Of a DNA stretch of 64,000 nt, positions 1-15,928 are shown in pieces (position 1 is the first letter of the stretch; every line of letters begins with the position of its first letter). Below the pieces are notes generated by a model that ran no database searches, was not told where the DNA came from, and saw only the letters and a list, made by a program, of their open reading frames with translations. Made by a program: the position numbers and the translations under genes. Source of the stretch: Candidatus Poribacteria bacterium (GTDB taxonomy: Bacteria > Poribacteria > WGA-4E > PCPOR2b); the NCBI GenBank assembly GCA_965208675.1, contig OZ242351.1:3136001-3200000 (forward strand). The letters are read 5' to 3'.

Positions 1-403
1 CTCTTGTATTACGGTAAGTTGCGGCATTTAAGTTTACCTCCAACGTACTTCCATCACTCTTCCGCAATACTAGCTCCGCATCACGTATTGTACCGTCGCT
101 TACAAGGCTAGCGAAGGCTTTCTTTGCACCTTCGACACTGTCCGGATGATATATCTTCGAAATAGGGTGGCCGACAATCTCCGCTTCTGCATAACCCAAC
201 GCCGTGCATAACGCCTCATTGCAGTGGAGAACCCTTTCCGAGACGGCATCAGCAGAAGCAAACATGTCCGGGCCGTTGTAATATGGATCTGCCTCCGACA
301 TCCGCTTGAATTTATCTCTATCGCGCTCTAACCTCGCCACTTGCTGGCGCAACCGCCGTATTTCGCTATTTCGTTGTGATTGTTTCCCATCTTCCGCTTG
401 CAT
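1..403 (-). CDS. PAS-domain signal transduction protein, N-terminal part (runs off window start); possibly a sensor kinase or sigma-54 activator
   Basis: Manual translation from ATG at 403 (RBS GAGGTG upstream): MQAEDGKQSQRNSEIRRLRQQVARLE (coiled coil), then PDMFASADAVSERVLHCNEALCTALGYAEAEIVGHPISKIYHPDS...ELVLRKSDGSTLEVNLNA (PAS/PAC pattern). Not in the ORF track because it is truncated. Confidence 0.8.
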   Translation of the reverse strand, partial: MQAEDGKQSQRNSEIRRLRQQVARLERDRDKFKRMSEADPYYNGPDMFASADAVSERVLHCNEALCTALGYAEAEIVGHPISKIYHPDSVEGAKKAFASLVSDGTIRDAELVLRKSDGSTLEVNLNAATYRNTR

Positions 404-700: not shown

Positions 701-1048
701 CTAAAACGCGGCGTCATCGCTTTTCGCATGAAAATTGCCGTTGGCATCGAAACCGGAGACCGACGCGTACGCGGAACCGCTGCTGCAACTTACGAGATCT
801 ACAACAGCGGAATCGGAAAGATTATTCCCATTAGCAAACGCGCCGCCATCTTGATCTACCGCGTGGTCAACGCGGGCGCGTACACTATAATAGCCATTTA
901 CAAGACCCCAACCGTTCACTGATGCCGTTGCCCGACATGTATTTTCATCTGCGGTACAGAAGGCGTTAAACGCATACACGCTAACACAAATGACAAGAAT
1001 TGAAATCACAATGGAGCTGCACAACATTACCGAAAATTTCAATTTCAT
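701..1048 (-). CDS. Small secreted Gly/Ser/Ala-rich hypothetical protein (gene B, copy 1)
   Basis: Signal peptide ending VSVYA; RBS AAGGAG; paralog of 14357-14779 (A[FY]NA, GLV[NS]G, SGSAxxxVSGxD). Confidence 0.75.
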   Translation of the reverse strand: MKLKFSVMLCSSIVISILVICVSVYAFNAFCTADENTCRATASVNGWGLVNGYYSVRARVDHAVDQDGGAFANGNNLSDSAVVDLVSCSSGSAYASVSGFDANGNFHAKSDDAAF

Positions 1049-1060
1049 GGAATTCTCCTT

Positions 1061-1687
1061 TTAATTTTGGTAGTCAATAAGAATTGCCGCAGGTTCGTAC
1101 CCGGCGGTTTCGGCGTTTACAATGCTTATGCCGGGGAACTTCGTCTTAAACGCCCCTGACGTTATTTCTTGATCTGTAAAAAGCCTGTCGTAGCTATCGA
1201 CCAACTGATTTACCGTGGTTGTGGCGCCAAGCCGACGGCGAATAAAAGGCATTTCAACAGATTTTCCATTAGCCGCTTGAAGTGTATAACTATCCCACCA
1301 GACATATATCACGTCCGGATAGATTGGGTAAACTCTACCGCTACGAGTTTCAAATATAGCGTTCAAAAAGTCATGGTCGCCCTGATTCCATAATTCGATT
1401 AGGACGCGGTACATTGTTACGTGGTCCGAAAAATCACGCTCCTGAAAATAGTCTTCGAGCCACACCGGCGTCATCGGAAATCCGTCAGGCACTTCAGGAA
1501 AATTACTGATATTTCCATCTTCTCGTTCAACTGACGAGTCTTGAGAAACACGTAAGTCAGGTAATGGTTCACTATTCGTGCCATGCACCCATCGGCTTCC
1601 GAAATTGCTGCCAATCACTATCACCACAGCAAACAATAATGCGCCGCCCAACAAGAGTGTCTGTTTTCTCGTAAACGTGGTTTTCAC
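1061..1687 (-). CDS. N-terminally membrane-anchored hypothetical protein (gene A, copy 1)
   Basis: N-terminal TM segment followed by FGSRW; core NFPEVPDGFP..PVWLED..RVLIELWNQGDH..VYPIY shared with 14798-15580. Confidence 0.8.
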   Translation of the reverse strand: MKTTFTRKQTLLLGGALLFAVVIVIGSNFGSRWVHGTNSEPLPDLRVSQDSSVEREDGNISNFPEVPDGFPMTPVWLEDYFQERDFSDHVTMYRVLIELWNQGDHDFLNAIFETRSGRVYPIYPDVIYVWWDSYTLQAANGKSVEMPFIRRRLGATTTVNQLVDSYDRLFTDQEITSGAFKTKFPGISIVNAETAGYEPAAILIDYQN

Positions 1688-1725
1688 CCTTCCACCTCCG
1701 TCATTTCAGAGAAACTTATGTGAGT

Positions 1726-1745
1726 GCTGCAGACCGTTCTACAGC
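1726..1745 (-). promoter_or_regulatory. Conserved 5'-leader hairpin (further copies at 9397-9416, 9888-9907, 15635-15654)
   Basis: 8-bp stem with an AYGG loop on the mRNA strand; compensatory and G-U changes between the four copies. Confidence 0.65.
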
Positions 1746-1762
1746 TTGTAGTATTGTCTATA

Positions 1763-1778
1763 TGCAAAAGACATGCCA
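1763..1778 (-). promoter_or_regulatory. sigma-54 (-24/-12) promoter
   Basis: Minus strand TGGCATGTCTTTTGCA matches TGGCACG-N4-TTGCW with exact GG-N10-GC spacing. Confidence 0.8.
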
Positions 1779-1822
1779 ATACATATAATCACCTTCATTT
1801 TAGAGGCTCGATTTTGGCTCAT

Positions 1823-2019
1823 AAACCCTTATGTGCAAAGGGATGCGAGAAATTTTATTTTTTTGTTTTGGACGGCATGGCTTTGAATTCCTATGGCAAA
1901 GGATGCGACATTTGTTGACACAATTAAGGGAAATTTGGGGTTCCCGGAGCGTGAAGCCTTACCATACAAGGGTTTTGCGAGCTGTGCGACAAAAGTTGAC
2001 AAAAGCAAAAAATGTCGCA
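1823..2019. promoter_or_regulatory. Putative sigma-54 enhancer region (TGCGACA boxes and IHF-like sites), copy 1
   Basis: TGCGACA-WWW-GTTGACA at 1904 and 1985, inverted TGTCGCA at 2013, AAACCCTT-N-AAGGGA elements; conserved in three copies upstream of sigma-54 promoters. Confidence 0.6.
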
Positions 2020-2156
2020 CCCTATTTTGAAAACGGAATCCTCGCCGGGTAAGTCGGGATGATACAAATATTGAGCAGGAATTAGGCGCAACCATTGAAC
2101 TAACTCCCACGGATTCCATTCGCAAACTATCATGCATTTCGGGTAGCCGAGTTTTT

Positions 2157-2640
2157 GTAGGTTGGGTAGAAATCAACTAAGCGAATAGCGAAGGCGATAG
2201 TCTTTCCGAAACCCAATGCTTTTGAGGCCTCTCTATGTCATAACAGCGTTGGGTGGGGTGAATTCTGGTAGGAGGAAATTCCAATTCCCGACTGTATGTC
2301 TATAACCCCTTCTACCTCCCCCTTGGTAAGGGAGAGGATTAAACTGACAAAACAGCTTTTGTAGGTTGGGTAGAGCGGGTTTGATGAAATATGGGAATTA
2401 TGAGGCATGAGGTTGGTCAGTTGATTGCGTTCAAGAATTGCTAGTGCGCAGCGAAACCCAACGATCAACTGAGCGAATAGCGAAGGCGATAGTCTTATCC
2501 TAACCGCCTCCAACAAACCGAACTCGCCGCAATATCCAAAAGCGTTGGATTGGTTGAATGCTGGTAGGAGGGAATTCCAATTCTCGATGGTCTGTCAACA
2601 ACCCCCTCTAGCTCCCCCTTGGCAAGGGGGAGGATTTTTC
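2157..2640. repeat. Composite REP-like intergenic repeat cluster
   Basis: GTAGGTTGGGTAGA...AACCCAAC arms, two 33-bp motifs (2172, 2463), two CCCCCTTGGYAAGGG hairpins; 2463-2703 is nearly identical to 10330-10570. Confidence 0.8.
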
Positions 2641-2703
2641 TGTATCATTCCCATGTGCGATTGAACTGGACAAATATACGCATTAAAATCCCTGCGTTCG
2701 CGG

Positions 2704-4089
2704 TTACCGCCGTTCGTCAGAAAGCCGAGTACCCGGCATGGCATAGTATTCGCCATTTGTCACTTCGGCGACTCGGCGCTGAAAGACATCCCTTTCGCGT
2801 TGCCGCGGGTGTACGAAACCGCCGATGACGTAAACAATGGCACCGGCTTGGCGGCAAACATCAATTCCCCCGCCGGGGGTGTACCCCTTCTCCCGACGGC
2901 GGCTGGTTGCTTCGTCGGTTACGATAATCAGTACAAGCTGGCGATGCTCTGGCGTGTCGAGCTTGGGGACGCCTTCCATTATGGCGTCGAGCAGGTGTTC
3001 ATCGCCCTCCTTCGGAAGCCGAAATAGCTTCTTGACCTGCTCGGCATCCAACGGCGGTTTCGTCACCACCATTGAGCTTTCTCCTCCGCCTACCCGCGCC
3101 CAAAAGCGGATGACACCGAAACGATAGTCGAGTCCGTTCTCATCAAGCGCATCCGCCAACCTATCCACTCCTGTACATATTTCATCAGTATTAAATCCCA
3201 TGCTGAAGCTGGAGTCGAAGATGAAAACAATATCGGAAGGCGACTTCACCGTTTCGACGAAGTGTTCGCCCATGAGTTCGAAAATCCCGGCGATCCTGAG
3301 AATCCGCTTATCTGTCATAGAGGTTGGCCACCTTCGCTGCTGATATTCATCAATGGGGCGCCACTTGCCTCCGGTTTCCTCAGCCAATTTCATCTGAACC
3401 GCATTATTTACCCCAAAAACGTCAATGTGAATCTCCTCCTGCTTACACTGTTCAACAATTTTACTTGCAAGCTGCTGTATAGCATTCTCCGCGTCCCACG
3501 TGGTTTGCAGGGGCGAATTTGTGACGACAATCAAGTGTTTGCGGGCGTCCAATCTGTAATCCAACTCCCTTAACCCCCACATTATCGCGTCAAGTCCATA
3601 TCCGGTGGAGTGGTCGTGCCGAAAATCGTCGTAAAGGCCTTCATGTACTGCACGCAGGCTGTCAATGAACGGACTGCCTTCGAATTTTGGGCCTCGATGA
3701 TTTTGAAACCAGACGGGCGCTATCTGGTAGTCGACTCCCGACTCCTCGAACATACCCACTAATTCGCCGAGATGTCTTTCAATTTGAACTATCGACGTTT
3801 TCATTTTTTCGCCGCGTTCGATGACAAAGACGATGTCAACCAAGTTATTCTCACTTTGACGGCTGGCGCGGCGAGCGATGCCGACAAGGCTTCTGCCGAC
3901 ATTTACCTTGGTTACTTCCGTTTCTTCCACTTTCGATTCTTTTTTTGGGTTAATCATGATTTTCGATTGCCGGCGCGGCGGTTGGACTTGCGCCCCAGCG
4001 AACGCTGCTAATGCATCAACGACTATCCAGATAGTCAACACCATCAAAGCAATCCCCGATTTCGAGGTGTATCGTTTCAATACAATCAT
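2704..4089 (-). CDS. Secreted protein with two tandem von Willebrand A (VWA) domains (copy 1)
   Basis: DIVFVIERGEKM (degenerate MIDAS) and DIVFIFDSSFSM...IIVTDE (intact DxSxS); start moved to ATG 4089 (RBS AAGGAG); paralog at 10571. Confidence 0.85.
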   Translation of the reverse strand: MIVLKRYTSKSGIALMVLTIWIVVDALAAFAGAQVQPPRRQSKIMINPKKESKVEETEVTKVNVGRSLVGIARRASRQSENNLVDIVFVIERGEKMKTSIVQIERHLGELVGMFEESGVDYQIAPVWFQNHRGPKFEGSPFIDSLRAVHEGLYDDFRHDHSTGYGLDAIMWGLRELDYRLDARKHLIVVTNSPLQTTWDAENAIQQLASKIVEQCKQEEIHIDVFGVNNAVQMKLAEETGGKWRPIDEYQQRRWPTSMTDKRILRIAGIFELMGEHFVETVKSPSDIVFIFDSSFSMGFNTDEICTGVDRLADALDENGLDYRFGVIRFWARVGGGESSMVVTKPPLDAEQVKKLFRLPKEGDEHLLDAIMEGVPKLDTPEHRQLVLIIVTDEATSRRREKGYTPGGGIDVCRQAGAIVYVIGGFVHPRQRERDVFQRRVAEVTNGEYYAMPGTRLSDERR

Positions 4090-4187
4090 TGGATTTTCTC
4101 CTTTCTTGCTGCGCCCAAGTCTAAATTGTGAATGACCGATTGAACTGACTAACCCAACCGACAAGAACGGAAACGTATTGTTCGGTG

Positions 4188-6407
4188 CTACTTAACAACC
4201 GCCATCCACCTTAGCGCGGTGTAATCACCCGCTTCTAGTTGGATGTAATAATTTCCGCTTGTGACGAGTTCGCCGTTTTGGTTTCGGCCGTCCCAATTCG
4301 CAGCACTCGCTTTGTCTCGATAGACTCCCGATACTTGATGTCCAATGTCGAGGGTGCGGACGATATGACCGCTCTGGTCGTAGATGCTTAAGGTTACGAC
4401 TGCATCGTTTGCCAACTGGTACGGTATCCAGGTCTCTGGGTTAAACGGATTCGGATAGTTCTGCAGCAACGCTGTCCGTTTGATGTTTCCCAAGGTGGTG
4501 ACGCGTTTTTCCAGCGGTCTCACCGCTAATTGGATAAAAGAGGAAACGTCCCACAGCAACACGGTGCCGTCCCAGCTCCCACTGGCGAGTGTACGCCCAT
4601 CCGGACTGAACGCAACGCTCCAAACCTCATCAGTATGCCCGTTGAGCGTGCGCAGGTGTTCTCCCGTGTCGGCATCCCATAATCTGACGGTGGCATCATG
4701 ACCGCCGCTAGCTATTGTGCGTCCATCGGGACTGAACGCAACGCTATAAACCCCAAACGCATGCCCGTTGAGTGTGCGGAGGTGTTCTCCGGTATCAACG
4801 TCCCACAATCGAATGGTAGTGTCCCAACTCCCGCTAGCAATCGTATGTCCGTCGGGGCTGAACGCGATGTCGTTTACCTGATTCCTATGTCCGTCAAGCG
4901 TTCGCAGATGTTTACCACCTGCAGTCCACAGGCGGATAGTGTCGTCCCAACTCCCGCTAGCCAGTGTGCGCCCATCGGGACTGTACGCTACGCTATAGAC
5001 GTGGTTCCTATGCCCTTTGAGCGTTCTCCGGTGTTTGCCTTTATTGAGATCCCATAACTGGATAGTGTCGTCCCAACCCCCGCTGGCTAACCTGGTGCCA
5101 TCGGGATTGAACACTACACTATAAACCGTCCCCCAATGCCCAATGAACGTTTGAAGATGTTCTCCCGTTTGCGCATTCCATAATCGGATGGTATCGTCCC
5201 AACTGCCACTGGCGATGGTACGCCCATCGAGACTGAACGCAACGCTCCGGACCCAACTTGAATGTCCGTTGAGAGTTCGGAGGTGTTTTGCTGTACCGGC
5301 GTCCAACAGTCGGATGGTACTGTCCCCGCGACTACCGATTGCTACGGTACGTCCATCCGGGCTAAATGCTAAGCTATTGACCTCGCGTGTATGTCCGCTG
5401 AGTGTTTGGTAGTGCTCCCCCGTGTCAATGTCCCATAATCGGATGGTGCTGTCCCAACTGCCACTGGCTAGCGTACGTCCATCGGTGCTGAAAGCAACGC
5501 TCCAGACCATTCCTTTATGACCATCGAGTGTTTGCAGGTGTTTTCCGGTATCGGCGTCCCACAGCCGGAGGGTACTGTCCCCACTCCCGCTGGCAATGGT
5601 GTGCCCATCAGGACTGAACGCAACGCTCCGGACCGTACCCGTATGCCCGCTGCGCCTTCTCAGAGGTTTTCCCGTATCGGCGTCCCACAACCGGAGGGTT
5701 TTGTCCAAGCTCCCACTTGCGAGGGTACGCCCATCGGGACTGAATGCCACGCTCCAGACCGATTTCGTATGCCCTTTGAGCGTTCGCAGGTGTTCTCCGG
5801 CATCGGCGTCCCACAGCCGGACGGTTTCGTCCGAACTCCCACTTGCGAGGGTTCGTCCATCGGGACTGAATGTGACACTCCAGACATCATCTGTATGCCC
5901 GGTAAACGTACGCAGTTGCTCTCCGGTAGCAGTGTCCCATAGCCGGATCGTAGGTTGCTCACCTCCGCTAGCGATGGTGCGTCCGTCCGGACTGAACGCA
6001 ACGCTATAAACCCAACCCGTGTGTCTAGTAAGCGTTCGCAAGTGTTCACCCGATTCCGCGTCCCACAGCCGGACAGTACGGTCCCAACTCCCGCTTGCGA
6101 TTTTGCGTCCGTCCGGACTGAACGCAACGCTCCAGACTCTACCCGTATGCCCAGTGAACAGTGCGGCCTCTTGATGAGTCACCGTATCGTAAAGCCAAAC
6201 GCCGGTACCGCTAGCGACCGCAAGTCGCGTGCCGTCGGGCGAATGCTGTATTTCATGCATAATGCCTTTACCGAACCTTGCTTTAGCGCCCTCGGGCAGC
6301 CCCCACTGTGGAGAATCTTGGGCGTAACTGTGCGGTAAATATAGAGCGGAAACGAATAAAAAGCTAAGCTTGAAAAACATTACTTTCTTCATTGGAATAA
6401 TCCTCAA
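4188..6407 (-). CDS. Secreted WD40-repeat protein with C-terminal FlgD-Ig/T9SS-CTD-like domain (copy 1)
   Basis: About 13-14 GH..VxSVAFSPDG..ASGS.D.T.RLWD repeats; signal peptide; QNYPNPFNPETWIPYQL...WDGRNQNGE tail. True start may be ATG 6392. Confidence 0.92.
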   Translation of the reverse strand: MRIIPMKKVMFFKLSFLFVSALYLPHSYAQDSPQWGLPEGAKARFGKGIMHEIQHSPDGTRLAVASGTGVWLYDTVTHQEAALFTGHTGRVWSVAFSPDGRKIASGSWDRTVRLWDAESGEHLRTLTRHTGWVYSVAFSPDGRTIASGGEQPTIRLWDTATGEQLRTFTGHTDDVWSVTFSPDGRTLASGSSDETVRLWDADAGEHLRTLKGHTKSVWSVAFSPDGRTLASGSLDKTLRLWDADTGKPLRRRSGHTGTVRSVAFSPDGHTIASGSGDSTLRLWDADTGKHLQTLDGHKGMVWSVAFSTDGRTLASGSWDSTIRLWDIDTGEHYQTLSGHTREVNSLAFSPDGRTVAIGSRGDSTIRLLDAGTAKHLRTLNGHSSWVRSVAFSLDGRTIASGSWDDTIRLWNAQTGEHLQTFIGHWGTVYSVVFNPDGTRLASGGWDDTIQLWDLNKGKHRRTLKGHRNHVYSVAYSPDGRTLASGSWDDTIRLWTAGGKHLRTLDGHRNQVNDIAFSPDGHTIASGSWDTTIRLWDVDTGEHLRTLNGHAFGVYSVAFSPDGRTIASGGHDATVRLWDADTGEHLRTLNGHTDEVWSVAFSPDGRTLASGSWDGTVLLWDVSSFIQLAVRPLEKRVTTLGNIKRTALLQNYPNPFNPETWIPYQLANDAVVTLSIYDQSGHIVRTLDIGHQVSGVYRDKASAANWDGRNQNGELVTSGNYYIQLEAGDYTALRWMAVVK

Positions 6408-6420
6408 TATTTCCAGAATA

Positions 6421-6574
6421 ATTAGGACTTACGCAGTTCAGTTTGTAGTAGCGCAATTTATTGCGCGTCCTGCAGGTCGTTTACTTCCTTGACTTGACAT
6501 ATTGTTTTATGTAGAAACGGGCAATAAATTGCCCTACTACGAACCTTTGGACATCCAACTGCGTAACTCCTAAT
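6421..6574. mobile_element. MITE-like element with terminal inverted repeats enclosing a GTAG-type REP doublet
   Basis: ATTAGGACTTACGCAGTT (6421-6438) / AACTGCGTAACTCCTAAT (6557-6574), 1 mismatch; internal inverted pair GTAGTAGCGCAATTTATTGCGCGT (6445) / ACGGGCAATAAATTGCCCTACTAC (6517). Confidence 0.65.
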
Positions 6575-6661
6575 AACAAGAAAAACACAGAATTTGCCCA
6601 CAAATCTCAAACGATGGAAATAACGAATAGCGAATCAGTAGACGTATCATGGTAGACCTCG

Positions 6662-7486
6662 TTATTCCTCCACACAATCGTAGGCATCGGGGCTGTGTAT
6701 CTGGTTGTATTCCGCAATTTGCACATCAATTGCACGGGGCGCATCGTCAATATGAACTATCCAATCTTTGTATTTCGATTCGACAGGCAAGCCATCCACT
6801 TCATCTACCCATATGTAGGCAGCACCCAATTCGCTAAGAACATATGGGATTTTTACCTTGCCCTTATCGCGAAACTTCTTTTCTATCTGATCTGCTATGG
6901 CTCGGCGCTTCGCATCGATCCACGGTTCGGCAGGGCTATTGGACAAAGCCTCAGTTGCCGTGACTCTCGTGATCACCTCTCCACGCTGTCCATGCTTCCG
7001 CTCGTATAGCTTCAGCAGTCTTAAGAATTTCGCTCTATTGTAGATAACAGTGTACCCGGTTGCTGGGACATAGCGGAATAGCACTTCTACGTCGGGATCA
7101 ATAAACCAAGACCTCACTTTGATTCTGCTCTTTCGGTCATACGTAGCCGCAGGATGAGGCAGTCCCTTGGCGAGATTATAAACCCTTTCCGACACAGTAT
7201 TCTTCAGCTCCAAATCAACCTCATTATGAGCAATCTGTGTACCAAGACGTACATTTGCGTCTCCTTGAGCATGACAGAAATCGTACATGTATTGAAGAAC
7301 GGCATCATACTCAGGCTCAGTCATATCCGCTCGAATATGGGCATAACTTTCAATAAGCGCATGTGGAAATTCTGTCGGAACTTTATCCTTTACCACCGGC
7401 TCCGGTTCCCTCGGAATTGGTGTTTCGGTTTCGCTGCAAGCCAAGCACATCACTAAGATGGCAGTGAGAATCAATACCCGTGTCAT
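6662..7486 (-). CDS. Hypothetical lipoprotein
   Basis: ATG 7486 with RBS GGAGG; MTRVLILTAILVMCLAC lipobox-like signal followed by a Pro/Glu linker. Confidence 0.7.
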   Translation of the reverse strand: MTRVLILTAILVMCLACSETETPIPREPEPVVKDKVPTEFPHALIESYAHIRADMTEPEYDAVLQYMYDFCHAQGDANVRLGTQIAHNEVDLELKNTVSERVYNLAKGLPHPAATYDRKSRIKVRSWFIDPDVEVLFRYVPATGYTVIYNRAKFLRLLKLYERKHGQRGEVITRVTATEALSNSPAEPWIDAKRRAIADQIEKKFRDKGKVKIPYVLSELGAAYIWVDEVDGLPVESKYKDWIVHIDDAPRAIDVQIAEYNQIHSPDAYDCVEE

Positions 7487-7614
7487 GTGAAACCTCCATT
7501 CATTTGTGTGATTTTTTTCAGTCTTAGGAAGTAACGTTCTAACTAGGAATGAAAAGAGTAACACTTTCATTGATTAATCCTCTTTAATTGTTGATAGACT
7601 TTTTATTGCAAATC

Positions 7615-8457
7615 TCAATGCAATATGTTCGCCTTAATGGAGCCCCAAGCAACCGCAGATTGCTCATTGGGATGAACTGCCAACCCTAATCCCCGTTTAA
7701 TGCCGCCTTGAAAGTGCGCAGTAATCTCGTCTTCGGTGAAGGCCCGTTTCGCAATTAGGACTTCATCAATAAGGCCATCCAGCCAAATGTCTTCTTCCGC
7801 AAAACCGATGGTTACCGGTGCGTTAATGGATCTGGGAGTGAAATCATCCGTTATATTCGATGGTATCCTAAACCGCGCAACTTGTTTGCCATCCAAGTAA
7901 ATTGTGTGCTCTTCGCCCCAACTGCGTGGGAATCGGTCACGCACTATAGCAACCTGATGCCACGTCTGAGGCTGCACTTCCCAAAGGAAGCTTCTGCCGA
8001 AAGACGCACCGCCGGCTCCATCTCCGACAACTTTGAGGATGTTTAACGTTGGATTCCCGTGTAAACTGTATCCAAGAATCCACTTGTCTAAAAACCCGGG
8101 GCCTTCATCTTGAGCGATGAACGCGTGTCGATGGCCGAATAGGGTTTCATTCATGTTGATCCACATGGCAATTGTGAAGTCTGATTCGTACAGCTTCAGA
8201 CTTCTATCTTTGCCGACATCGACATAACCATCCGGCTCCACTTGAATTGCATTTCCAAATTTACCCGCCTCCCATTTTGCGTTCTGCTTCAGTATGCCGT
8301 GGTTTCCGTGCCGAGAGAGGTCTTTGGTAATTTCCCCTCTGCCTTCATCAAACGGCAAGGCAAGTACAATGTCTCTGTCGACGACTGATTCGGCTTCTCC
8401 AGAGTAGAAAGCGGCGACGAACGCGGTTATCAGTAGAGCTGAAACTAAAGTTTTCAT
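7615..8457 (-). CDS. Secreted LamG/concanavalin-A-like domain protein with C-terminal AVxP..WGxIK motif
   Basis: LPFDEGRG..DLS.HGNHG..GKFGNA..FTIAMWIN..WHQVAIV..YLDG..GLIDEV; ends LAVHPNEQSAVAWGSIK; start ATG 8457 (RBS GGAGG). Confidence 0.88.
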   Translation of the reverse strand: MKTLVSALLITAFVAAFYSGEAESVVDRDIVLALPFDEGRGEITKDLSRHGNHGILKQNAKWEAGKFGNAIQVEPDGYVDVGKDRSLKLYESDFTIAMWINMNETLFGHRHAFIAQDEGPGFLDKWILGYSLHGNPTLNILKVVGDGAGGASFGRSFLWEVQPQTWHQVAIVRDRFPRSWGEEHTIYLDGKQVARFRIPSNITDDFTPRSINAPVTIGFAEEDIWLDGLIDEVLIAKRAFTEDEITAHFQGGIKRGLGLAVHPNEQSAVAWGSIKANILH

Positions 8458-8538
8458 TGGTAATTCCTCCTTCATAACATTACTAGCAGACATGTTTCCA
8501 ATCAGGTTCTAAATTGTGTATTGACTTTTTAATATCTT

Positions 8539-9348
8539 TCACACTTTATCATTTAAAAGGTACGATTTCATCACTGCTTTGAGGTTGTTCGATCTCGAAA
8601 GCCAACCGGGGAGAGCACTCGCATAAAAAGAATTTTGCTTTGCTAGAGTTTTTAAGAATTCGCGCTTATGAAAATCAAACTCCAAGAAAACCTTCCACGC
8701 ATATTCCGGTTCCTCTTTCAGTGCTGCGTCAATGTTATTGTTGAATTTCTTGACTGCTAAGGCGGTACGCGTTTTCCAAATTCCATCCGGTTCCACATTC
8801 ACCAGTTTCTGAATAACCCGTGTCGCATTCGCACCCGCAAGCGTAGCAAAATCTGCATATCCAGCTTGCAAGCTCGGATGAACGTCCCAGCAATTATAAC
8901 GTTCAAAATAATCTCGGTAAAACCTCTTTATTACCTCCAGATTTGCATCGGTCAAAGCCAGTGCATCTTGACTCGTGTTTGTGCGCCCTAAGCGGATTAC
9001 ATTTGCGGGCAGGTGCGCTTTATCACCTTGTTTATTCCGCCATTCCATCCACGCGACAGCCGTTATGCCCGCGTAAGAAACCCCGCCAACATGTGCGGGT
9101 TCATGGATATTCAGCCCGGTTTCATGCCTCAGGATGAACCTTAAAGCAACATCTCGTGAAAGAGACGCGTGGACAAGGCTATTCATTTTGGCAAATTGCA
9201 GATCGTTCGACAATAATCGTTCTGGTACAGCTTTCATATCGCGGCCATTGAGCCAGCGGATTCCGAAATAACCGCCTGCAATCAATAGCGCTGAAATCAA
9301 AACCGATCCGCATACCAACAGTTTTTGTCTAATCGAGAACATTAACAT
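8539..9348 (-). CDS. Membrane-anchored glycoside hydrolase family 108 (N-acetylmuramidase-like) protein with peptidoglycan-binding C-terminus
   Basis: ALRFILRHETG..EPAHVGGVSYAGIT resembles the GH108 HEGG..DP.D.GG.T..GIT pattern; DFATLAG..IQKLVNVEPDG and GWLSR match the C-terminal part. Confidence 0.7.
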   Translation of the reverse strand: MLMFSIRQKLLVCGSVLISALLIAGGYFGIRWLNGRDMKAVPERLLSNDLQFAKMNSLVHASLSRDVALRFILRHETGLNIHEPAHVGGVSYAGITAVAWMEWRNKQGDKAHLPANVIRLGRTNTSQDALALTDANLEVIKRFYRDYFERYNCWDVHPSLQAGYADFATLAGANATRVIQKLVNVEPDGIWKTRTALAVKKFNNNIDAALKEEPEYAWKVFLEFDFHKREFLKTLAKQNSFYASALPGWLSRSNNLKAVMKSYLLNDKV

Positions 9349-9444
9349 CACCTTCCTCACTCTATCAATCCTCGCTTGAGGGAAATTTATGTGAGCACCG
9401 CGGACCATTCCGCAGTTCAAAGTGTTACCAATGGCTATCTTATA

Positions 9445-9460
9445 AGTAAATTGTGTGCCA
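9445..9460 (-). promoter_or_regulatory. Degenerate sigma-54 promoter
   Basis: TGGCACACAATTTACT: intact -24 element, -12 GC changed to AC; homologous to 9937-9952. Confidence 0.5.
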
Positions 9461-9721
9461 ATCTGAATACGCTCACGCTATTAGCATACGCCATTGTCTA
9501 TCTTTACTTGGAACCTCTCAAGGCAATTAGTAGTTTGCAGTCGTCTTACGATATATAACCTGCAACCTAGGATTTTGCCTTTTTAGGTACCGCTTAATTA
9601 TCTTGCGAAAATATCTATGGGTCTTGCGTTTAGCGTTCAAGTCGTCACCCCCGTTTAGTTAACCTTTTTTAGTGAAGCCCATGTAGTATCGAACGTTAAT
9701 TTTTTCACCAGGATAATGCTG

Positions 9722-9837
9722 CTAGTAGGTCTTACGTACTGCTACCGGCTCCACATAGTGGAACCGGCGACTTCCGAAATAGCTGCCGCAATCAATCCGC
9801 ATAGCAACTATTTCTGTCTAATCGTAAACATGGACAT
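9722..9837 (-). pseudogene. Decayed 5' fragment of a gene-A-type membrane anchor gene
   Basis: MSMFTIRQK then TAG, followed by frameshifted GSYFGSR; aligns to the 5' end of 8539-9348. Confidence 0.7.
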
Positions 9838-9936
9838 CACCTTCCTCACCCTGTCAATCCTCGCTCTTGCGAGAAATTTATGTCACCACTGCGGACCGTT
9901 CCGCAGTTCAAAGAGCTACTTAATGGGTATTTCATA

Positions 9937-9952
9937 AGCAAATTGCGTGCCA
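9937..9952 (-). promoter_or_regulatory. sigma-54 (-24/-12) promoter
   Basis: TGGCACGCAATTTGCT, perfect consensus. Confidence 0.85.
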
Positions 9953-9994
9953 AGACGAATAACCCCGTACAATTTAAGCTCCGATTTGACTCGG

Positions 9995-10194
9995 AAACCC
10001 TTGTGTGTCAAGGGATACGGGCAGTTAATTTTTTTCAGACTGAAACGGCAGCGTCCTGACGGGGCAGGCAAAGGGGGTGCAACATTTGTTTACAAAAATC
10101 GGGAAAATTGGGGGAAAAATAGCGCGTGAAACCTTGCTAGGTAAGGGTTTTGGGGGATGTGCGACAAAAGTTGACAAAAGCAAAAAATGTCGCA
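9995..10194. promoter_or_regulatory. Putative sigma-54 enhancer region, copy 2
   Basis: TGCAACATTTGTTTACA (10078); TGCGACAAAAGTTGACAAAAGCAAAAAATGTCGCA (10160-10194) identical to copies 1 and 3. Confidence 0.6.
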
Positions 10195-10315
10195 CCCTAT
10201 TTTGAAGACGGAAGCGTCAGCGGACACGGCGGAATGATACAAAATGGAGCAGGAATTGGGTGCTATGGTACGCAAACTCACCTGTATTTCGGATAACTGA
10301 AAGGTGAAAGCTCTT

Positions 10316-10503
10316 GTAGGTTGGGTAGAGATCAACTGAGCGAATAGCGAAGGCGATAGTCTTATCCGTACCGCCTCCAACAAACCGAACTCGCCGCAAT
10401 ATCCAAAAGCGTTGGATTGGTTGAATTCTGGTAGGCGGGAACTCCAATTCCCGACTGTATGTCTATAACCCCCTCTAGCTCCCCCTTGGTAAGGGGGAGG
10501 ATT
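10316..10503. repeat. Composite REP-like intergenic repeat
   Basis: Same modules as 2157-2640. Confidence 0.8.
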
Positions 10504-10570
10504 TTTCTGTATCATTCCCATGTGCAATTGATCTTGACAAATTAACGCATTAAAATCCCTGCGTTCGCGG

Positions 10571-11947
10571 TTACCATCGTTCGTCAGAAAATTGAGCATT
10601 TGGCAGGGCATAGTGTTCACCTTTTGTTACCTCAGGGGCGCGTCGCTGAAAGACATCCCTTTCGCTATGCCGCGGATGTTCATAACCGCCAATGACATAA
10701 ACAATGGCACCGGATTGGCGGCAAACGCTAATCGCCATATCCGGTGTGTATCCCCTCTCGCGGCGGCGGCTGGTCGGTTCATCCGTTACGATCATGAGGA
10801 CAAGTTGGCGATCCGCAGGCGTTTGAAGCTTGGGGACGCCTTCGATAATTGCATCGAGCAGGTGTTCATCGCCTTCCTTCGGCAGCTGGAATAACTTCTT
10901 GACCTGCACAGCATCTAACGGCGGTTTCGTCACCACGATTGAGCTTTCTCCCCCGCCTACTCGCGCCCAAAACCGGATAACCCCGAAACGATAGTCGAGT
11001 CCTCCTTCATCTAGGGTTTCCGCCAAAACATCAAATCCACCGCAAATATCTTCGACATCGGCTTTCATGCTAAAGCTGGAATCGAAGACGAAGACGATAT
11101 CGGCAGATTGCTTCGCCGCCGGAATCATGTGTTCGCCAATGAGTTCGAAAATCCCGCCAATTCTTTGAATCCGCTTATCCAAATATGAGGGTGTTCTTCG
11201 TACCTGCTGGTATTCGTCAACTGCGTACCACTTCCCGCCGGTCTCCTCCGCCAACTGTAGTTGCACGGCTTCATTTACCCCAATAACATTGATGTGAACA
11301 TCATCCTGCACACACCGCTCAATTATCTGATTGGTACGTTGCTGTGTTGCATTTGGTGCTTTCCATGCCGTCTGCAACGGGGAATTTGTGACGACAATCA
11401 TGTGCTTGGCGGCATCCGATCTGTAGTTCAACTCCCTTACCCCCCACATCATCGCCTCAAGTCCATATCCGGTCAAATGACTGCCTCGAAATTGTGTGTA
11501 GAAACTATCCTGGATAGCACGAAAGTCGTTCCTGAATTCGCTGCCCTCAAATTTTCCACCGCCCTGATTTTGAAACCAGACTGGCGCTATCCGGTAGTCG
11601 ACCCCCGACTCCTCGAACACACTCACCATATTGTCAAGCTGTTCTTCAATCTCCGCAATCGCCGCTTTCATCGTCTCGCCGTGTTCAATGACATAGACGA
11701 AATCAACCATCTTTTCCTTACCCTGACGGCTGGCGCGGCGTGTAATGCCGAGGAGGCTTTTACCAATATTAATCTCTGTTTTCTGCGCTTTTGCCTCATT
11801 TTTTGGACTGACCATAACTCGCCGCTTACGGCGCGGCGGCTGCACTCGTGCTTCGGCAATCGCTGAAAACCCATCAACACCAATCCAGATTGTCAGCATC
11901 ATTAAAGCCATTCCAGATTTCAATTTGACTGGTTTCAACATGTTCAT
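10571..11947 (-). CDS. Secreted double-VWA domain protein (copy 2)
   Basis: DIVFVFDSSFSM MIDAS, IVTDE; RFWARVGGGESS identical to copy 1; start ATG 11947 (RBS GGAAGGAG). Confidence 0.85.
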   Translation of the reverse strand: MNMLKPVKLKSGMALMMLTIWIGVDGFSAIAEARVQPPRRKRRVMVSPKNEAKAQKTEINIGKSLLGITRRASRQGKEKMVDFVYVIEHGETMKAAIAEIEEQLDNMVSVFEESGVDYRIAPVWFQNQGGGKFEGSEFRNDFRAIQDSFYTQFRGSHLTGYGLEAMMWGVRELNYRSDAAKHMIVVTNSPLQTAWKAPNATQQRTNQIIERCVQDDVHINVIGVNEAVQLQLAEETGGKWYAVDEYQQVRRTPSYLDKRIQRIGGIFELIGEHMIPAAKQSADIVFVFDSSFSMKADVEDICGGFDVLAETLDEGGLDYRFGVIRFWARVGGGESSIVVTKPPLDAVQVKKLFQLPKEGDEHLLDAIIEGVPKLQTPADRQLVLMIVTDEPTSRRRERGYTPDMAISVCRQSGAIVYVIGGYEHPRHSERDVFQRRAPEVTKGEHYALPNAQFSDERW

Positions 11948-12065
11948 TGATGCACTCTCCTTCCGTTCCGCTCTAGTCACGGCGGGTTACACTGCAATTC
12001 TCCCTGGCCGTAGCGACGAAATTCTGATTTTCGAATTACTGGTTTATCACTCCTACGGTACGGGC

Positions 12066-14267
12066 CTACTTGACAACCACCATCCGCCGTGTCGAGCTGT
12101 GATCGCCCGCCGCGAGTTGAATGTAATACGTTCCGCTTGTGACGGGTTCTCCGTTTTGGTTGCGGCCGTCCCAATGCGCTGCGCTGGCTTTGTCTCGGTA
12201 GACGCCCGATGGTTGATGCCCAATGTCGAGGGTGCGGACGATATGACCGCGCTGGTCGTAGATGCTAAAGGTTACGACCGAATCGTCCGCCAACTGATAA
12301 GGTATCCAAGTCTCCGGGTTGAACGGATTCGGATAATTTTGCAGCAACGCTGTCCGTTTGATGTTTCCCAAGGTTGTTATGCGTCGTTCCGACGGTTCCA
12401 CCGCTAATTGGATTGAAGACTCAACTTCCCACAATAACACCGTGCCGTCCTGACTCCCGCTCGCCAGTGTGCGTCCATCAGGACTGAACGCCACGCTCTC
12501 GACCGGAGCTGTATGCCCTTTGAGTGTCCGCCGGTGTTTTCCGGTTTCAATGTCCCACAGTCGGATAGTATTGTCCTCGCTTCCACTAGCGATGGTCTCT
12601 CCATCGGGACTGAACGCCACGCTCTCGACCGGAGCTGTATGCCCTTTGAGTGTCCGCCGGTGTTTTCCGGTTTCAATGTCCCACAGTTGGACCGTACCGT
12701 TGATACTTCCGCTAACGATGGTGTTTCCATCGGGACTGAACGCAACACTTTCGACTTGAAGTGCATGCTCCATGAGTGTTTTCAGGTGTTTTCCGGTATC
12801 AGCGTTCCACAGCCGGATGGTATCGTCCTTGCTTCCACTAGCGATGGTTTTTCCATCGGGACTAAACACAACACTTAGGACGAACCATTCATGCCCCTTG
12901 AGCGTTTGCTGATGTTCTCCGGTATCGGCGTTCCACAGCCGGATATCTTCCCAATTCCCGCTAGCGATGGTCTTTCCATCGGGACTAAACACAACGCTGG
13001 AGACCCAACCTGAGAGCGTTTTCAGGTGTTTTCCGGTATCAGCGTTCCACAGCCGGATGGTATCGTCCAAGCTACCACTGGCGAGTATGTGTCCATCGGG
13101 ACTAAACGCTACACTGTCGACCCAATCTGTATGCCCCATGAGTGTTCTCAAATGTTTTCCGGTATCAGCGTTCCACAGCCGGATATCTTCCCAATTCCCG
13201 CTAGCGATGGTCTTTCCATCGGGACTAAACGCAACGCTTTCGACTGGAGTTGTATGTCCCATGAGTGTTTTCAGTTGTTTTCCGGTATCAACGTTCCAAA
13301 GGCGGATGGTACCGTCCAAACTCCCGCTGGTGATGGCGGTTCCATTGGGACTAAACGCCATACTTTCGACGCAAGTTGAATGCCCGGTGAGCGTTTGCTG
13401 GTGCTCTCCGGTATGAGCGTTCCACAGTTGGATTTCATCCCAATTCCCGCTAGCGATGGTCTTTCCATCGGGACTGAACGCAACGCTGGAGACCCAATGC
13501 CTATGCCCCTTGAGCGTTTTAAGAGTTTTCAAGTGTTCTCCGGCATGGGCGTTCCACAGGCGTATGGTATGGTCCCCGCTCCCGCTAGCGATGGTTTTTC
13601 CGTCGGGACTAAACGCAACGCTTGAGACCCAATCTGTATGCCCGATGAGCGTTTGCTGGTGTTTGCCGGTATGAGCGCTCCACAAGCGGATGGTGCTGTC
13701 CCGACTCCCACTCACGATTGTGTTTCCGTCGGGACTGAATGCAACGGTTTCGACCCCATCTGAATGCCCGTCCAACGTTCGCTGGTGTTTTCTGCCAAAT
13801 GTGTTCCACAGGCGGATGGTACCGTCCTTGCTCCCGCTAGCGACGGTTTTTCCATCGGGACTAAACGCAACGCTTGAGACCCAATCTGTATGCCCCTTGA
13901 ATTTTTGCTGGTGTCTTCCGCTATCAGCGCTCCACAGGCGGACGGTATTGTCCACGCTTCCACTAGCGATGGTTTTTCCATCGGGACTAAACGCAACGCT
14001 ACTGACCGAATGCATATTTCTAGTGAGCAGAGCAACCTCTTGATGAGTCGCCGTATCGTAGAGCCATATTCCGATACTGCTGGCAACCGCAAGGCGGGTG
14101 CCGTCGGGCGAATACTGTATTTCATTTATCACACCTTTACCGAGGCGCGCTTGGGCGCCCTTGGGCAGCCCCCATAGCGGAAAATCTTGGGCGCCGCCGG
14201 GCGGTACGCACAGCACGGAAATAAAAAAGGATAATAGGCTAAGCTTGAAAATCATTGCTTTCTCCAA
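12066..14267 (-). CDS. Secreted WD40-repeat protein with C-terminal FlgD-Ig/T9SS-CTD-like domain (copy 2)
   Basis: WD40 repeats, signal peptide, and QNYPNPFNPETWIPYQL tail nearly identical to copy 1. Confidence 0.92.
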   Translation of the reverse strand: MEKAMIFKLSLLSFFISVLCVPPGGAQDFPLWGLPKGAQARLGKGVINEIQYSPDGTRLAVASSIGIWLYDTATHQEVALLTRNMHSVSSVAFSPDGKTIASGSVDNTVRLWSADSGRHQQKFKGHTDWVSSVAFSPDGKTVASGSKDGTIRLWNTFGRKHQRTLDGHSDGVETVAFSPDGNTIVSGSRDSTIRLWSAHTGKHQQTLIGHTDWVSSVAFSPDGKTIASGSGDHTIRLWNAHAGEHLKTLKTLKGHRHWVSSVAFSPDGKTIASGNWDEIQLWNAHTGEHQQTLTGHSTCVESMAFSPNGTAITSGSLDGTIRLWNVDTGKQLKTLMGHTTPVESVAFSPDGKTIASGNWEDIRLWNADTGKHLRTLMGHTDWVDSVAFSPDGHILASGSLDDTIRLWNADTGKHLKTLSGWVSSVVFSPDGKTIASGNWEDIRLWNADTGEHQQTLKGHEWFVLSVVFSPDGKTIASGSKDDTIRLWNADTGKHLKTLMEHALQVESVAFSPDGNTIVSGSINGTVQLWDIETGKHRRTLKGHTAPVESVAFSPDGETIASGSEDNTIRLWDIETGKHRRTLKGHTAPVESVAFSPDGRTLASGSQDGTVLLWEVESSIQLAVEPSERRITTLGNIKRTALLQNYPNPFNPETWIPYQLADDSVVTFSIYDQRGHIVRTLDIGHQPSGVYRDKASAAHWDGRNQNGEPVTSGTYYIQLAAGDHSSTRRMVVVK

Positions 14268-14356
14268 TCGTTAAATGCGGTGGTCAGTGTCCAGTTGCCA
14301 GCAAATGCTATTCACTGGCAACTGGACACGCGTTTTCGCGTAGTGATGCGTTGTTT

Positions 14357-14779
14357 CTAATCCTCGCCTTCTGGCGGAGTGATTACGTGCGATGTCTTTT
14401 CACTAAACGACTTTCTAGTTGCATTGTACCGCACGTCATGTGTTCGTTTATGATGCCAGTTATGCACATCTCTACCACTCACATAACCACTTGCACTGCC
14501 GCTCTTATTATCCGCTCCTCCCATGGAAACGGATACACTCGCTACCGTCCCGGGGTGGATAGTGTCACTATCACTATCGGATTTATTTCCAATACTAACT
14601 GACGCTTTGACTGTTCCGGACACAAGCCCAGTGCTGTTCGCTCCGCCAGTTAGCGAAATGGTTCCAGCAGTCGCATTGCGGCTCCCGCTAGCCCAAGCGT
14701 TATACGCACTTACGCTAATACAAACAATTAGGGAGGTAAACACAAAAATACTCAACGTGACCAACACTTTCACTTTCAT
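14357..14779 (-). CDS. Small secreted Gly/Ser-rich hypothetical protein (gene B, copy 2)
   Basis: Signal peptide ending VSVSA-like ISVSA|YNA; RBS AAGGAG; paralog of 701-1048. Confidence 0.75.
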   Translation of the reverse strand: MKVKVLVTLSIFVFTSLIVCISVSAYNAWASGSRNATAGTISLTGGANSTGLVSGTVKASVSIGNKSDSDSDTIHPGTVASVSVSMGGADNKSGSASGYVSGRDVHNWHHKRTHDVRYNATRKSFSEKTSHVITPPEGED

Positions 14780-14797
14780 GGTATTCTCCTTTTTGTT

Positions 14798-15580
14798 TTA
14801 GTAGTCGTTAAGAACAGTTGCCGGGTCATAACCGGCATCACTGTAATCAACAAAGGTTACATCGGGATGCATCGTCACATAAGCGCCCGACATTAATTCT
14901 TCCACTGTAAAAAGATTCCCATCTTCATTGAGTAATGGCTCAACCGTGCTTGAAATACCAAGTCTGTAGCTAATATACGGCACCTCAAGCGACTCTCCAT
15001 TGAGGTTTTCACCAACGTAACTATCCCACTCAACATAAACCACATCGTGATAGATTGGGTACACCTTACCGGTATCTTCATCAAGAACACCGTATACAAT
15101 TTCGTGGTCTCCCTGATTCCACAATTCTATCAAGACACGGTCAATTATCACATGGTCGGCGTGAAGAATCTCGTCAAAAAAGTCTTCGAGCCAAACTGGT
15201 CTAATGTTTGATGGAAACCCTTCAGGCACATCAGGGAAATTCTTCCCTTCATCCTTTTCAAGTGAGGACAGGGTGTCAGCAAGAGTCGTTGACTCGTCAT
15301 TGCCAAGAAAATCTTGCAGAGTTTCCGACTCTTCATGAGTGATGTTGTTTTGCCCCGGTTCGAGTTGTGATTCAGACATTGATGGGGCATCTTGAGTAAC
15401 AGAAGCGCAGGCAGGACAATTCATCTGTCCGGCATACCGTTTGGCAGTCAACAGGTGTTCCGGCACGGGATTCACATCCGGACCATGTAACCAGCGGCTT
15501 CCGAAATAGCTGCCTGCAACCAGTAACACCGCGAACAAAACTGTGGCGCCCACTACAAGTCTCTGTTTACTCGTTAACAT
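14798..15580 (-). CDS. N-terminally membrane-anchored hypothetical protein (gene A, copy 2)
   Basis: Start moved to ATG 15580 because the longer ORF start lies in the sigma-54 promoter; TM + YFGSRW; core shared with 1061-1687. Confidence 0.8.
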   Translation of the reverse strand: MLTSKQRLVVGATVLFAVLLVAGSYFGSRWLHGPDVNPVPEHLLTAKRYAGQMNCPACASVTQDAPSMSESQLEPGQNNITHEESETLQDFLGNDESTTLADTLSSLEKDEGKNFPDVPEGFPSNIRPVWLEDFFDEILHADHVIIDRVLIELWNQGDHEIVYGVLDEDTGKVYPIYHDVVYVEWDSYVGENLNGESLEVPYISYRLGISSTVEPLLNEDGNLFTVEELMSGAYVTMHPDVTFVDYSDAGYDPATVLNDY

Positions 15581-15671
15581 TGTTATCACCTTTCTACCGC
15601 TGTCTCTTCTTGGTTGAGAGGAATTTATGTGACCGCTGCAGACCGTTCTGCAGCTTGTGATATTGTCTATA

Positions 15672-15687
15672 AGCAAAATACATGCCA
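15672..15687 (-). promoter_or_regulatory. sigma-54 (-24/-12) promoter
   Basis: TGGCATGTATTTTGCT with exact spacing. Confidence 0.8.
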
Positions 15688-15729: not shown

Positions 15730-15928
15730 AAACCCTGATGTATCAAGGGATACGGGCAATTTTATTTTTTTTGGTTAGGGACGGCATAGCTTTGAATGCC
15801 TATGGCAATGGATGCGACATTTGTTGACACAATTGAAGGAAATTTGGGGTTGCCGGCGCGTGAAGCCTTGCCACACAAGGGTTTTGGGGGATGTGCGACA
15901 AAAGTTGACAAAAGCAAAAAATGTCGCA
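15730..15928. promoter_or_regulatory. Putative sigma-54 enhancer region, copy 3
   Basis: TATCAAGGGATAC (IHF-like); TGCGACA boxes at 15813 and 15894, inverted at 15922. Confidence 0.6.

Follow-up and report, generated by a model that had tools for sequence, protein, structure and literature searches.

Short stem-loops and dyads at the beginning of transcription units are known from several systems. The Qrr small-RNA genes of Vibrio occur as several paralogues, and at each locus an activator site and a sigma-54 promoter are combined with a 5′ stem-loop. Stabilisers of the Escherichia coli ompA type are stable hairpins near the 5′ end with an AU-rich leader after them. Phage coat proteins and ribosomal proteins recognise operator hairpins with a short variable stem, a conserved small loop and conserved closing pairs, and roadblock operators of the LacI/CcpA type are 20-bp dyads of DNA in the early transcribed region. 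Here we compare with these systems a hairpin that recurs downstream of sigma-54 promoters in a 64,000-nt stretch from a Candidatus Poribacteria bacterium (contig OZ242351.1; G000:3136001-3200000, hereafter the window), and which a previous sequence-only reading had proposed as a new cis-regulatory RNA leader. On balance we lean to the view that this element is a genus-restricted stem-loop of the 5′ untranslated region and probably a sequence-specific protein recognition site in RNA. A short conserved leader hairpin is of a familiar kind; this one appears limited to one genus of uncultured sponge-associated Poribacteria, where it heads operons of exported WD40, VWA and lectin-like proteins. We found no prior description of it in the literature on sigma-54 and enhancer-binding proteins of Poribacteria or on sigma-54 leader stem-loops, and no Rfam model.

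Like the Qrr genes, the present loci form a multi-copy module of activator site and sigma-54 promoter with a conserved stem-loop directly after it. However, the transcripts here enter protein-coding operons, have no terminator past the hairpin and show no sequence similarity to Qrr; solely one locus, L001, has no open reading frame (ORF) behind it. Read on the minus strand, the order of the module is upstream activator site (UAS), gap, sigma-54 promoter, variable spacer, hairpin, leader and a GGAGG-type ribosome-binding site. The UAS is an 18-bp inverted repeat, TCCCTTGAYACATCAGGG, and lies roughly 43 nt before the promoter (45 nt in copy D by hand count). Each of the four window hairpins, copies A to D in Table 1, consists of an 8-bp stem and an A-Y-R-G tetraloop, which is ACGG or AUGG in the window. 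Their positions and letters are those given by the sequence-only reading, and the AYGG loop and the conserved tail CACAUAA(A/G)UU(U/C)C on the 3′ side, which it also described, are present in all four. Chance is excluded as their origin: the degenerate 18-mer core gives six matches at the four sites, since perfect palindromes match the plus strand too, and dinucleotide-preserving shuffles (n = 100) give a mean of 0.07 and never reach six.

The claim that a hairpin follows all four sigma-54 promoters needs a correction. Hairpins A, C and D are preceded by a canonical TGGCAY-N5-TTGC with a UAS, but the promoter of copy B is crippled (TGGCAC-N5-TTAC) and has no recognisable UAS. Copies B and C belong to a tandem duplication in which B comes some 490 nt downstream of C. 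In this duplicated segment (window 9420-9960), promoter, hairpin, leader and first codons are all repeated; the upstream duplicate, copy C, keeps UAS and TTGC in front of a truncated gene start, and copy B is followed by the intact gene, which encodes a GH108 domain.

The hairpin starts 18 nt after the C of the -12 element in type I modules (G000, G005), 23-24 nt after it in a variant of G006 and G007, and 29-30 nt after it in type II modules and in L068. These differences are 6- and 12-nt indels directly after the -12 element, and the hairpin is intact despite them. The standard sigma-54 geometry places +1 at a distance of 12 nt past the -12 C, and hence the predicted hairpin start at +8, +13/14 or +19/20 and its span at about +8 to +39. 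Because this start falls downstream of the predicted +1 in every promoter-linked copy, the hairpin is predicted to be always transcribed, and for the same reason RNA is the likelier molecule of action than DNA.

The covariance-model (CM) search of related genomes that the sequence-only reading had named as a check was run with a model built from 18 copies. It returned 20 copies across the four species of the genus: six in G000, four in G005, three in G006 and seven in G007. The six of G000 fall within a 52-kb segment, each on the minus strand. With E ≤ 0.1 and stricter filters, no match was obtained in the 147 other genomes of the order (4/151 matched, all of this genus). Of 159 genomes of the order compared by BLAST with the 171-nt module, the four of the genus alone had real matches, and two further ones had short promoter-only matches with E > 0.001. 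In 29 genomes of the family the hairpin pattern matched outside the genus solely within unrelated sequence. Among 176 genomes of the phylum, the UAS pattern is multi-copy in this genus alone, save for an unrelated 21-copy repeat in G076. This last repeat, 26 nt long (TCCCTTATCACAAGTGGGTTTATAGG), occupies 21 chromosomal sites in a genome of the same order and another family, and its likeness to the UAS reflects chance or distant kinship. When metagenomes were searched with the 21-nt UAS pattern, seven loci were found, none of them by eye with a sigma-54 promoter or hairpin, in a search from which close records were possibly excluded.

The genus carries at least 35 UAS modules (nine in G000, seven each in G005 and G006, 12 in G007). 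A CM-detectable hairpin is present in 17 of them, decayed remnants in two (L043 and G006:152707) and unrelated leaders in 16. Conversely, 17 of the 20 CM matches sit behind a UAS and a sigma-54 promoter; those without UAS are copy B, L026 and L061, of which the latter two lie inside operons, before WD40 genes, and have mismatches adjoining the loop. The hairpin is therefore not a general sigma-54 feature, as the sequence-only reading would have it, but is specific to part of one regulon. Many further sigma-54 promoters are expected in this genome, in which strong matches to the sigma-54 activator domain number 18. Homology among modules stops at or shortly past the hairpin in L017, L025, L001 and L024, and therefore the hairpin seems to travel with the promoter and not with one particular gene.

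In the 20-copy alignment, standard pairs fill 96.3% of the 160 stem cells, and slid registers reach at most 65.6% pairing. Three of the eight stem pairs have changes on both sides: position 1 (A-U in eight copies, G.U in seven, G-C in three, other in two), position 2 (C-G in 18, U-A in L068, other in one) and position 6 (A-U in 12, G-C in eight). Positions 1 and 6 are those at which a compensatory G-C/A-U exchange had been noticed in the window, and both are borne out. The covariation score is 0.257 against 0.169 ± 0.021 for shuffled alignments, and none of 500 shuffles reached the observed value; three double-change pairs were also reached in 29 of the 500. Selection for intrastrand pairing is the simplest reading of the three symmetric double changes, that of L068 above all, and it is supported by the conserved asymmetric loop and by the persistence of the hairpin through indels.

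Conservation along the module points in the same direction. Among the 17 copies with UAS and promoter, mean pairwise identity is 0.84 in the 5′ arm, 0.94 in the loop, 0.85 in the 3′ arm and 0.83 in the promoter. It is 0.47 in the 12 nt past the -12 element, 0.63 in the 12 nt before the hairpin, and 0.62, 0.51 and 0.40 in successive segments on the 3′ side. In this comparison the identity of the UAS is underestimated, its offset varying between copies. Changes in the loop are transitions only (C to U twice, G to A once), and the closing A-U pair and the G-C pair next to it, the two top pairs, are invariant in promoter-linked copies. Judged from these comparisons, the hairpin is under constraint, with stem and loop conserved like the promoter while the flanks drift.

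These data also bear on the idea of a functionless relic that was inherited with a duplicated promoter cassette and kept palindromic by template-switch mutation or gene conversion among copies. Quasi-palindrome correction yields symmetric changes without selection, all copies derive from one module in one genus, and several have decayed. However, the hairpin is conserved like the -24/-12 elements between flanks of 47-63% identity that carry indels, and the conservation extends between paralogues with differing downstream genes. We regard a relic as very improbable, the least probable of the explanations weighed here.

Folding gives a consistent picture. Minimum free energy (MFE) structures contain the hairpin in 18/18 predicted leaders, in L010, L019 and L025 with 1-3 pairs fewer. 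The first 50 nt of hairpin-bearing leaders have z scores of -1.5 to -3.5 in 16/17 cases, and hairpin-less leaders have z > -1 in 16/17 and no comparable structure. The latter result rules out that some hairpin or other starts every leader of the regulon.

Whether the palindrome acts as RNA or as DNA can be approached through changes that pair on one strand only. On the mRNA strand, seven copies have a G.U pair at position 1, copy B has one at position 3 and copy A one at position 5; the two internal single changes are thus both G.U on this strand. By our own count, 154/160 cells are paired on the mRNA strand and 148/160 on the antisense strand. The sequence-only reading had stated that wobbles occur solely on the transcribed strand. 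This is correct for the window, where they are U5.G of copy A and U3.G of copy B, but not for the wider set, in which L010 has A.C and L025 has C.A and A.A. Its interpretation is supported as to the constraint, the downstream position and the covariation, now of three pairs. Its preference for RNA over a DNA palindrome is not established, and the wobble asymmetry is not significant.

A number of observations weigh against an action as RNA. Homologs with broken stems, which the sequence-only reading had itself named as contrary evidence, were looked for; most cells pair, as given above, but L010, L025, L043, G006:152707, L026 and L061 carry mismatches or decay. The A.C of L010, on the mRNA strand, concerns the terminal pair, position 1, of an otherwise intact hairpin, and both mismatches of L025 are terminal. 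L043, which is the ortholog of L025, and G006:152707 have decayed further with UAS and promoter intact. Counted as independent events, at least three wobbles stand against two changes of the A.C type, which is not a significant difference. Symmetric double changes are possible in a DNA palindrome too. The covariation rests on few events because the copies are close kin: all are paralogues or orthologues from four close species, and each pair shows about one double event. Decay is seen in L026 and L061, which lie inside operons and have no promoter; this speaks against a position-independent RNA site, and 18 of the 35 UAS modules do without the hairpin. Moreover, no candidate for an RNA-binding protein was found, the genome being without a CsrA match, and the apex recurs in no further hairpin of the genome beyond chance. 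A scan for the apex GAAYGGUC gave seven matches, namely the six known copies and one 5-bp stem at chance level; unrelated control apexes gave 0-1 matches and the reverse-complement apex four, presumably the opposite strands of perfect copies.

The main competitor is a DNA operator, in which a dimeric factor would bind the 8-4-8 palindrome just past the start site, block open complex formation or elongation, and so repress a subset of the regulon. As in LacI/CcpA-type roadblock operators, a 20-bp dyad, perfect or near-perfect, lies in the early transcribed region, here at about +8 to +39. The dyad goes with the promoter module, for homology often stops at or soon past it, as in the four loci named above, and the decay of L026 and L061, which have no promoter, agrees with such a role. 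G..T and A..C are both seen at position 1, as if each half-site called for R/Y, and the half-sites of types I and II could fit paralogous regulators. In contrast to LacI/CcpA-type sites, however, an asymmetric centre is conserved here, and the changes are compensatory and not degenerate. This non-palindromic 4-bp centre is conserved more strongly than any other part of the element, an uncommon trait in a symmetric DNA operator. Protein binding to DNA hardly accounts for the symmetric double change at position 2 of L068, one among the seven copies of that genome, and both internal single changes retain pairing in RNA. In addition, the palindrome is found nowhere else in the genome, and the distance between promoter and hairpin varies by 12 bp. 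No cognate factor is evident either; the sole DNA-binding protein of the cluster is the activator, whose presumed site, the UAS, is unrelated in sequence. We consider a DNA operator possible but doubtful.

We therefore return to the RNA recognition site as the preferred reading. According to it, the stem-loop would be transcribed as part of the 5′ untranslated leader in some operons of one sigma-54 regulon, would act as RNA and would be recognised by a protein in a sequence-specific manner. A protein recognition site appears the most likely role because the loop and the apical pairs are the most conserved part. The bound protein would set the fate of the mRNA, through decay or elongation, and the hairpin would then add a post-transcriptional layer onto activator control. 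The combination of a short variable stem with a conserved small loop and closing pairs is that of phage coat-protein and ribosomal-protein operators, but the hairpin here is clear of the ribosome-binding site and start codon. A bolder version, which we consider possible but doubtful, is that the hairpin is the RNA operator of an undiscovered RNA-binding regulator. This regulator would form a second, post-transcriptional checkpoint over a two-component sigma-54 switch, specific to the exported eukaryote-like cassettes (WD40, VWA, laminin-G) of the sponge symbiont.

The stem-loop could also work alone, shielding the mRNA from the 5′-end-dependent decay exerted by an RNase E/G homologue, as in E. 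coli. Indeed, at -11 to -15 kcal/mol in context the stem is stable; it lies near the predicted 5′ end and is followed by an AU-rich single-stranded tract, as in ompA-type stabilisers; the genome has an RNase E/G homologue and no RNase Y match, and the decay of copies that are no longer promoter-proximal fits a role at the 5′ end. However, 5′-end protection needs a hairpin within a few nucleotides of the mRNA end, and the unpaired tail is 0-4 nt in ompA-type stabilisers but a predicted 7, 12-13 or 18-19 nt here. Because of this predicted 7-19 nt tail, the stabilising leader that the sequence-only reading had offered as one option fits poorly. A pure structural role also leaves the conserved sequence of loop and apical pairs unexplained, and leaders of the same regulon without the hairpin have no comparable structure in its place. 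Orthogonal stem-loops distant from the end are reported as bypassed by RNase E (PMC9943677), which counts against such a stabiliser as well. Taken alone, 5′ stabilisation is in our view unlikely.

Several other identities of the element were considered. In our reading the hairpin does not mask the ribosome-binding site and is neither a terminator nor a riboswitch. With the start codon lying 36-201 nt past the hairpin, the ribosome-binding site is unlikely to be masked directly. None of the four window hairpins was called as an intrinsic terminator or attenuator on either strand, and the stem is followed by GGUCACAUAA. At the gathering score, Rfam 15 gave no match in the 64-kb window, so the novelty claimed for the element relative to Rfam stands. 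With E ≤ 10, five 3-kb loci gave three weak matches of 18.9-24.4 bits against gathering scores of 50-55; two lie away from the hairpin, and STnc560 in L006 (18.9 bits) spans it but on the strand opposite the mRNA. A CsrA/RsmA site was rejected, the loop being ACGG, AUGG or ACAG followed by U and containing no GGA; a search of the genome for CsrA gave no match, with a positive control in three known genomes. Targets of ANTAR proteins are two tandem hexaloop hairpins with A at position 1 and G at position 4; here there is a single hairpin and no terminator, and a search for the ANTAR domain gave no match but is uninformative, its control being silent too.

Pairing with the Shine-Dalgarno (SD) region fares no better. 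RNAalifold on nine leaders proposed a helix GUCAC/GUGAU, which joins the GGUCAC tail to the region past the SD sequence, but outside the hairpin there is no double-sided change and there are several breaks. A pseudoknot between loop and flank was dismissed by eye, since an upstream CCAU accompanies ACGG and AUGG loops alike and no covariation is seen. Listed ORFs run through hairpins B and D. A coding function of the hairpin was rejected: from the predicted +1 to the hairpin, type I modules contain no start codon, copy A has a closed frame, and further downstream there is a conserved SD sequence with an ATG.

Table 1. Positions of hairpin modules and associated genes in the 64,000-nt window
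Feature	Position	Strand	Remarks
Hairpin copy A	1726..1745	-	GCUGUAGA-ACGG-UCUGCAGC; U5.G wobble; CM 64.1 bits; present in MFE fold
Conserved tail 3′ of hairpin A	1708..1725	-	ACUCACAUAAGUUUCUCU; first 12 nt: pairwise identity 0.62, 17 copies
Sigma-54 promoter A (predicted)	1763..1778	-	TGGCATGTCTTTTGCA; -12 C to hairpin start 18 nt
UAS A	1826..1843	-	TCCCTTTGCACATAAGGG; presumed enhancer-binding-protein site
Hairpin copy B	9397..9416	-	ACUGCGGA-AUGG-UCCGCGGU; U3.G wobble, AUGG loop; CM match
Degenerate promoter B	9446..9460	-	TGGCACACAATTTAC; -12 GC changed to AC; no UAS upstream
Hairpin copy C	9888..9907	-	ACUGCGGA-ACGG-UCCGCAGU; CM match
Sigma-54 promoter C (predicted)	9937..9952	-	TGGCACGCAATTTGCT; -12 C to hairpin start 30 nt
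UAS C	9998..10015	-	TCCCTTGACACACAAGGG
Hairpin copy D	15635..15654	-	GCUGCAGA-ACGG-UCUGCAGC; CM match
Sigma-54 promoter D (predicted)	15672..15687	-	TGGCATGTATTTTGCT; -12 C to hairpin start 18 nt
UAS D	15733..15750	-	TCCCTTGATACATCAGGG
Operon A, first gene	1061..1687	-	208 aa, N-terminal membrane anchor, no Pfam match
Operon A, second gene	701-1048	-	115 aa
PAS-PAS-HisKA-HATPase histidine kinase, N-terminal part	2..403	-	545 aa, extends beyond window
Operon B, first gene	8539..9360	-	Membrane-anchored, GH108 domain; start codon uncertain, 9342-9360
Operon D, first gene	14798..15580	-	260-aa membrane-anchored protein

The genes behind the hairpin-bearing modules belong to one set of exported proteins whose order varies: membrane-anchored proteins starting with MFTIRQKL (one with GH108), small secreted proteins of 115-140 aa, Laminin_G_3, WD40 proteins of 730-740 aa and VWA. 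In the window, operon B continues with Laminin_G_3, WD40 (739 aa) and VWA genes down to about 2704, and operon D with genes for proteins of 140 aa, WD40 (733 aa) and VWA (469 aa). Hairpin-less modules front other exported proteins. Directly downstream of the histidine kinase, outside the window, lies a response regulator of 477 aa with the domains REC-Sigma54_activat-HTH_8. G000 has four paralogous activator genes, each adjoining a UAS module of the hairpin-less kind. The PAS histidine kinase of this cluster, together with an activator of the NtrC type, probably drives the regulon.

With this element a regulon not described before comes into view in an uncultured sponge symbiont, in which at least 35 near-identical modules of activator site and sigma-54 promoter precede exported proteins. 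WD40, VWA and laminin-G proteins are reportedly among the "eukaryote-like" classes discussed for Poribacteria, and eukaryote-like proteins of these classes are widely suspected to take part in host contact. As an RNA control element, the hairpin would set apart those operons that are under an additional layer of control, and it would supply a 20-nt bait for the regulator; as a DNA operator, it would reveal the input of a repressor. The motif itself is small and genus-restricted, hence of modest general importance, and the surrounding regulon may be of more interest than the hairpin.

Hairpin-less modules lie at 2805956, 3103450, 3321904 and 3948922 of G000 and at 13 sites in G005-G007. In 15 of these 17, the gap between UAS and TGGCA is exactly 43 nt, and their leaders fall into few classes with other exported proteins behind. 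Two hairpin-bearing modules stand apart by what follows them. L001 (G000:C1:3099108-3099261) has the full UAS, sigma-54 promoter and hairpin, and is directed into the 3′ end of a convergent gene; an orphan promoter is one possibility, a small or antisense RNA another. By its N-terminal motif, the convergent gene looks like LpxB. In the region of L011 (G007:2197739), the membrane-anchored gene behind an intact module stops after about eight codons (MFTRKQKR-stop) and is probably broken.

Three further features lie near the modules. After both VWA genes of the window, at 2612-2632 and 10479-10499, there is the same terminator-like hairpin, CTCCCCCTTGG(C/T)AAGGGGGAG, whose T run is on the plus strand; it belongs to the duplicated cassette. 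Just upstream of module D, on the opposite strand, a PhoX-type alkaline phosphatase with a C-terminal FlgD Ig-like domain is encoded (16739-18469, plus strand). In L018, L019, L021 and L022 (G005-G007), a second hairpin follows about 50-70 nt past the first, before small genes starting with MKLKALVML; it reads CAGGAU-AUA-AUCCUG or CGCAGGA...UCCGCG, with apparently compensatory changes between copies.

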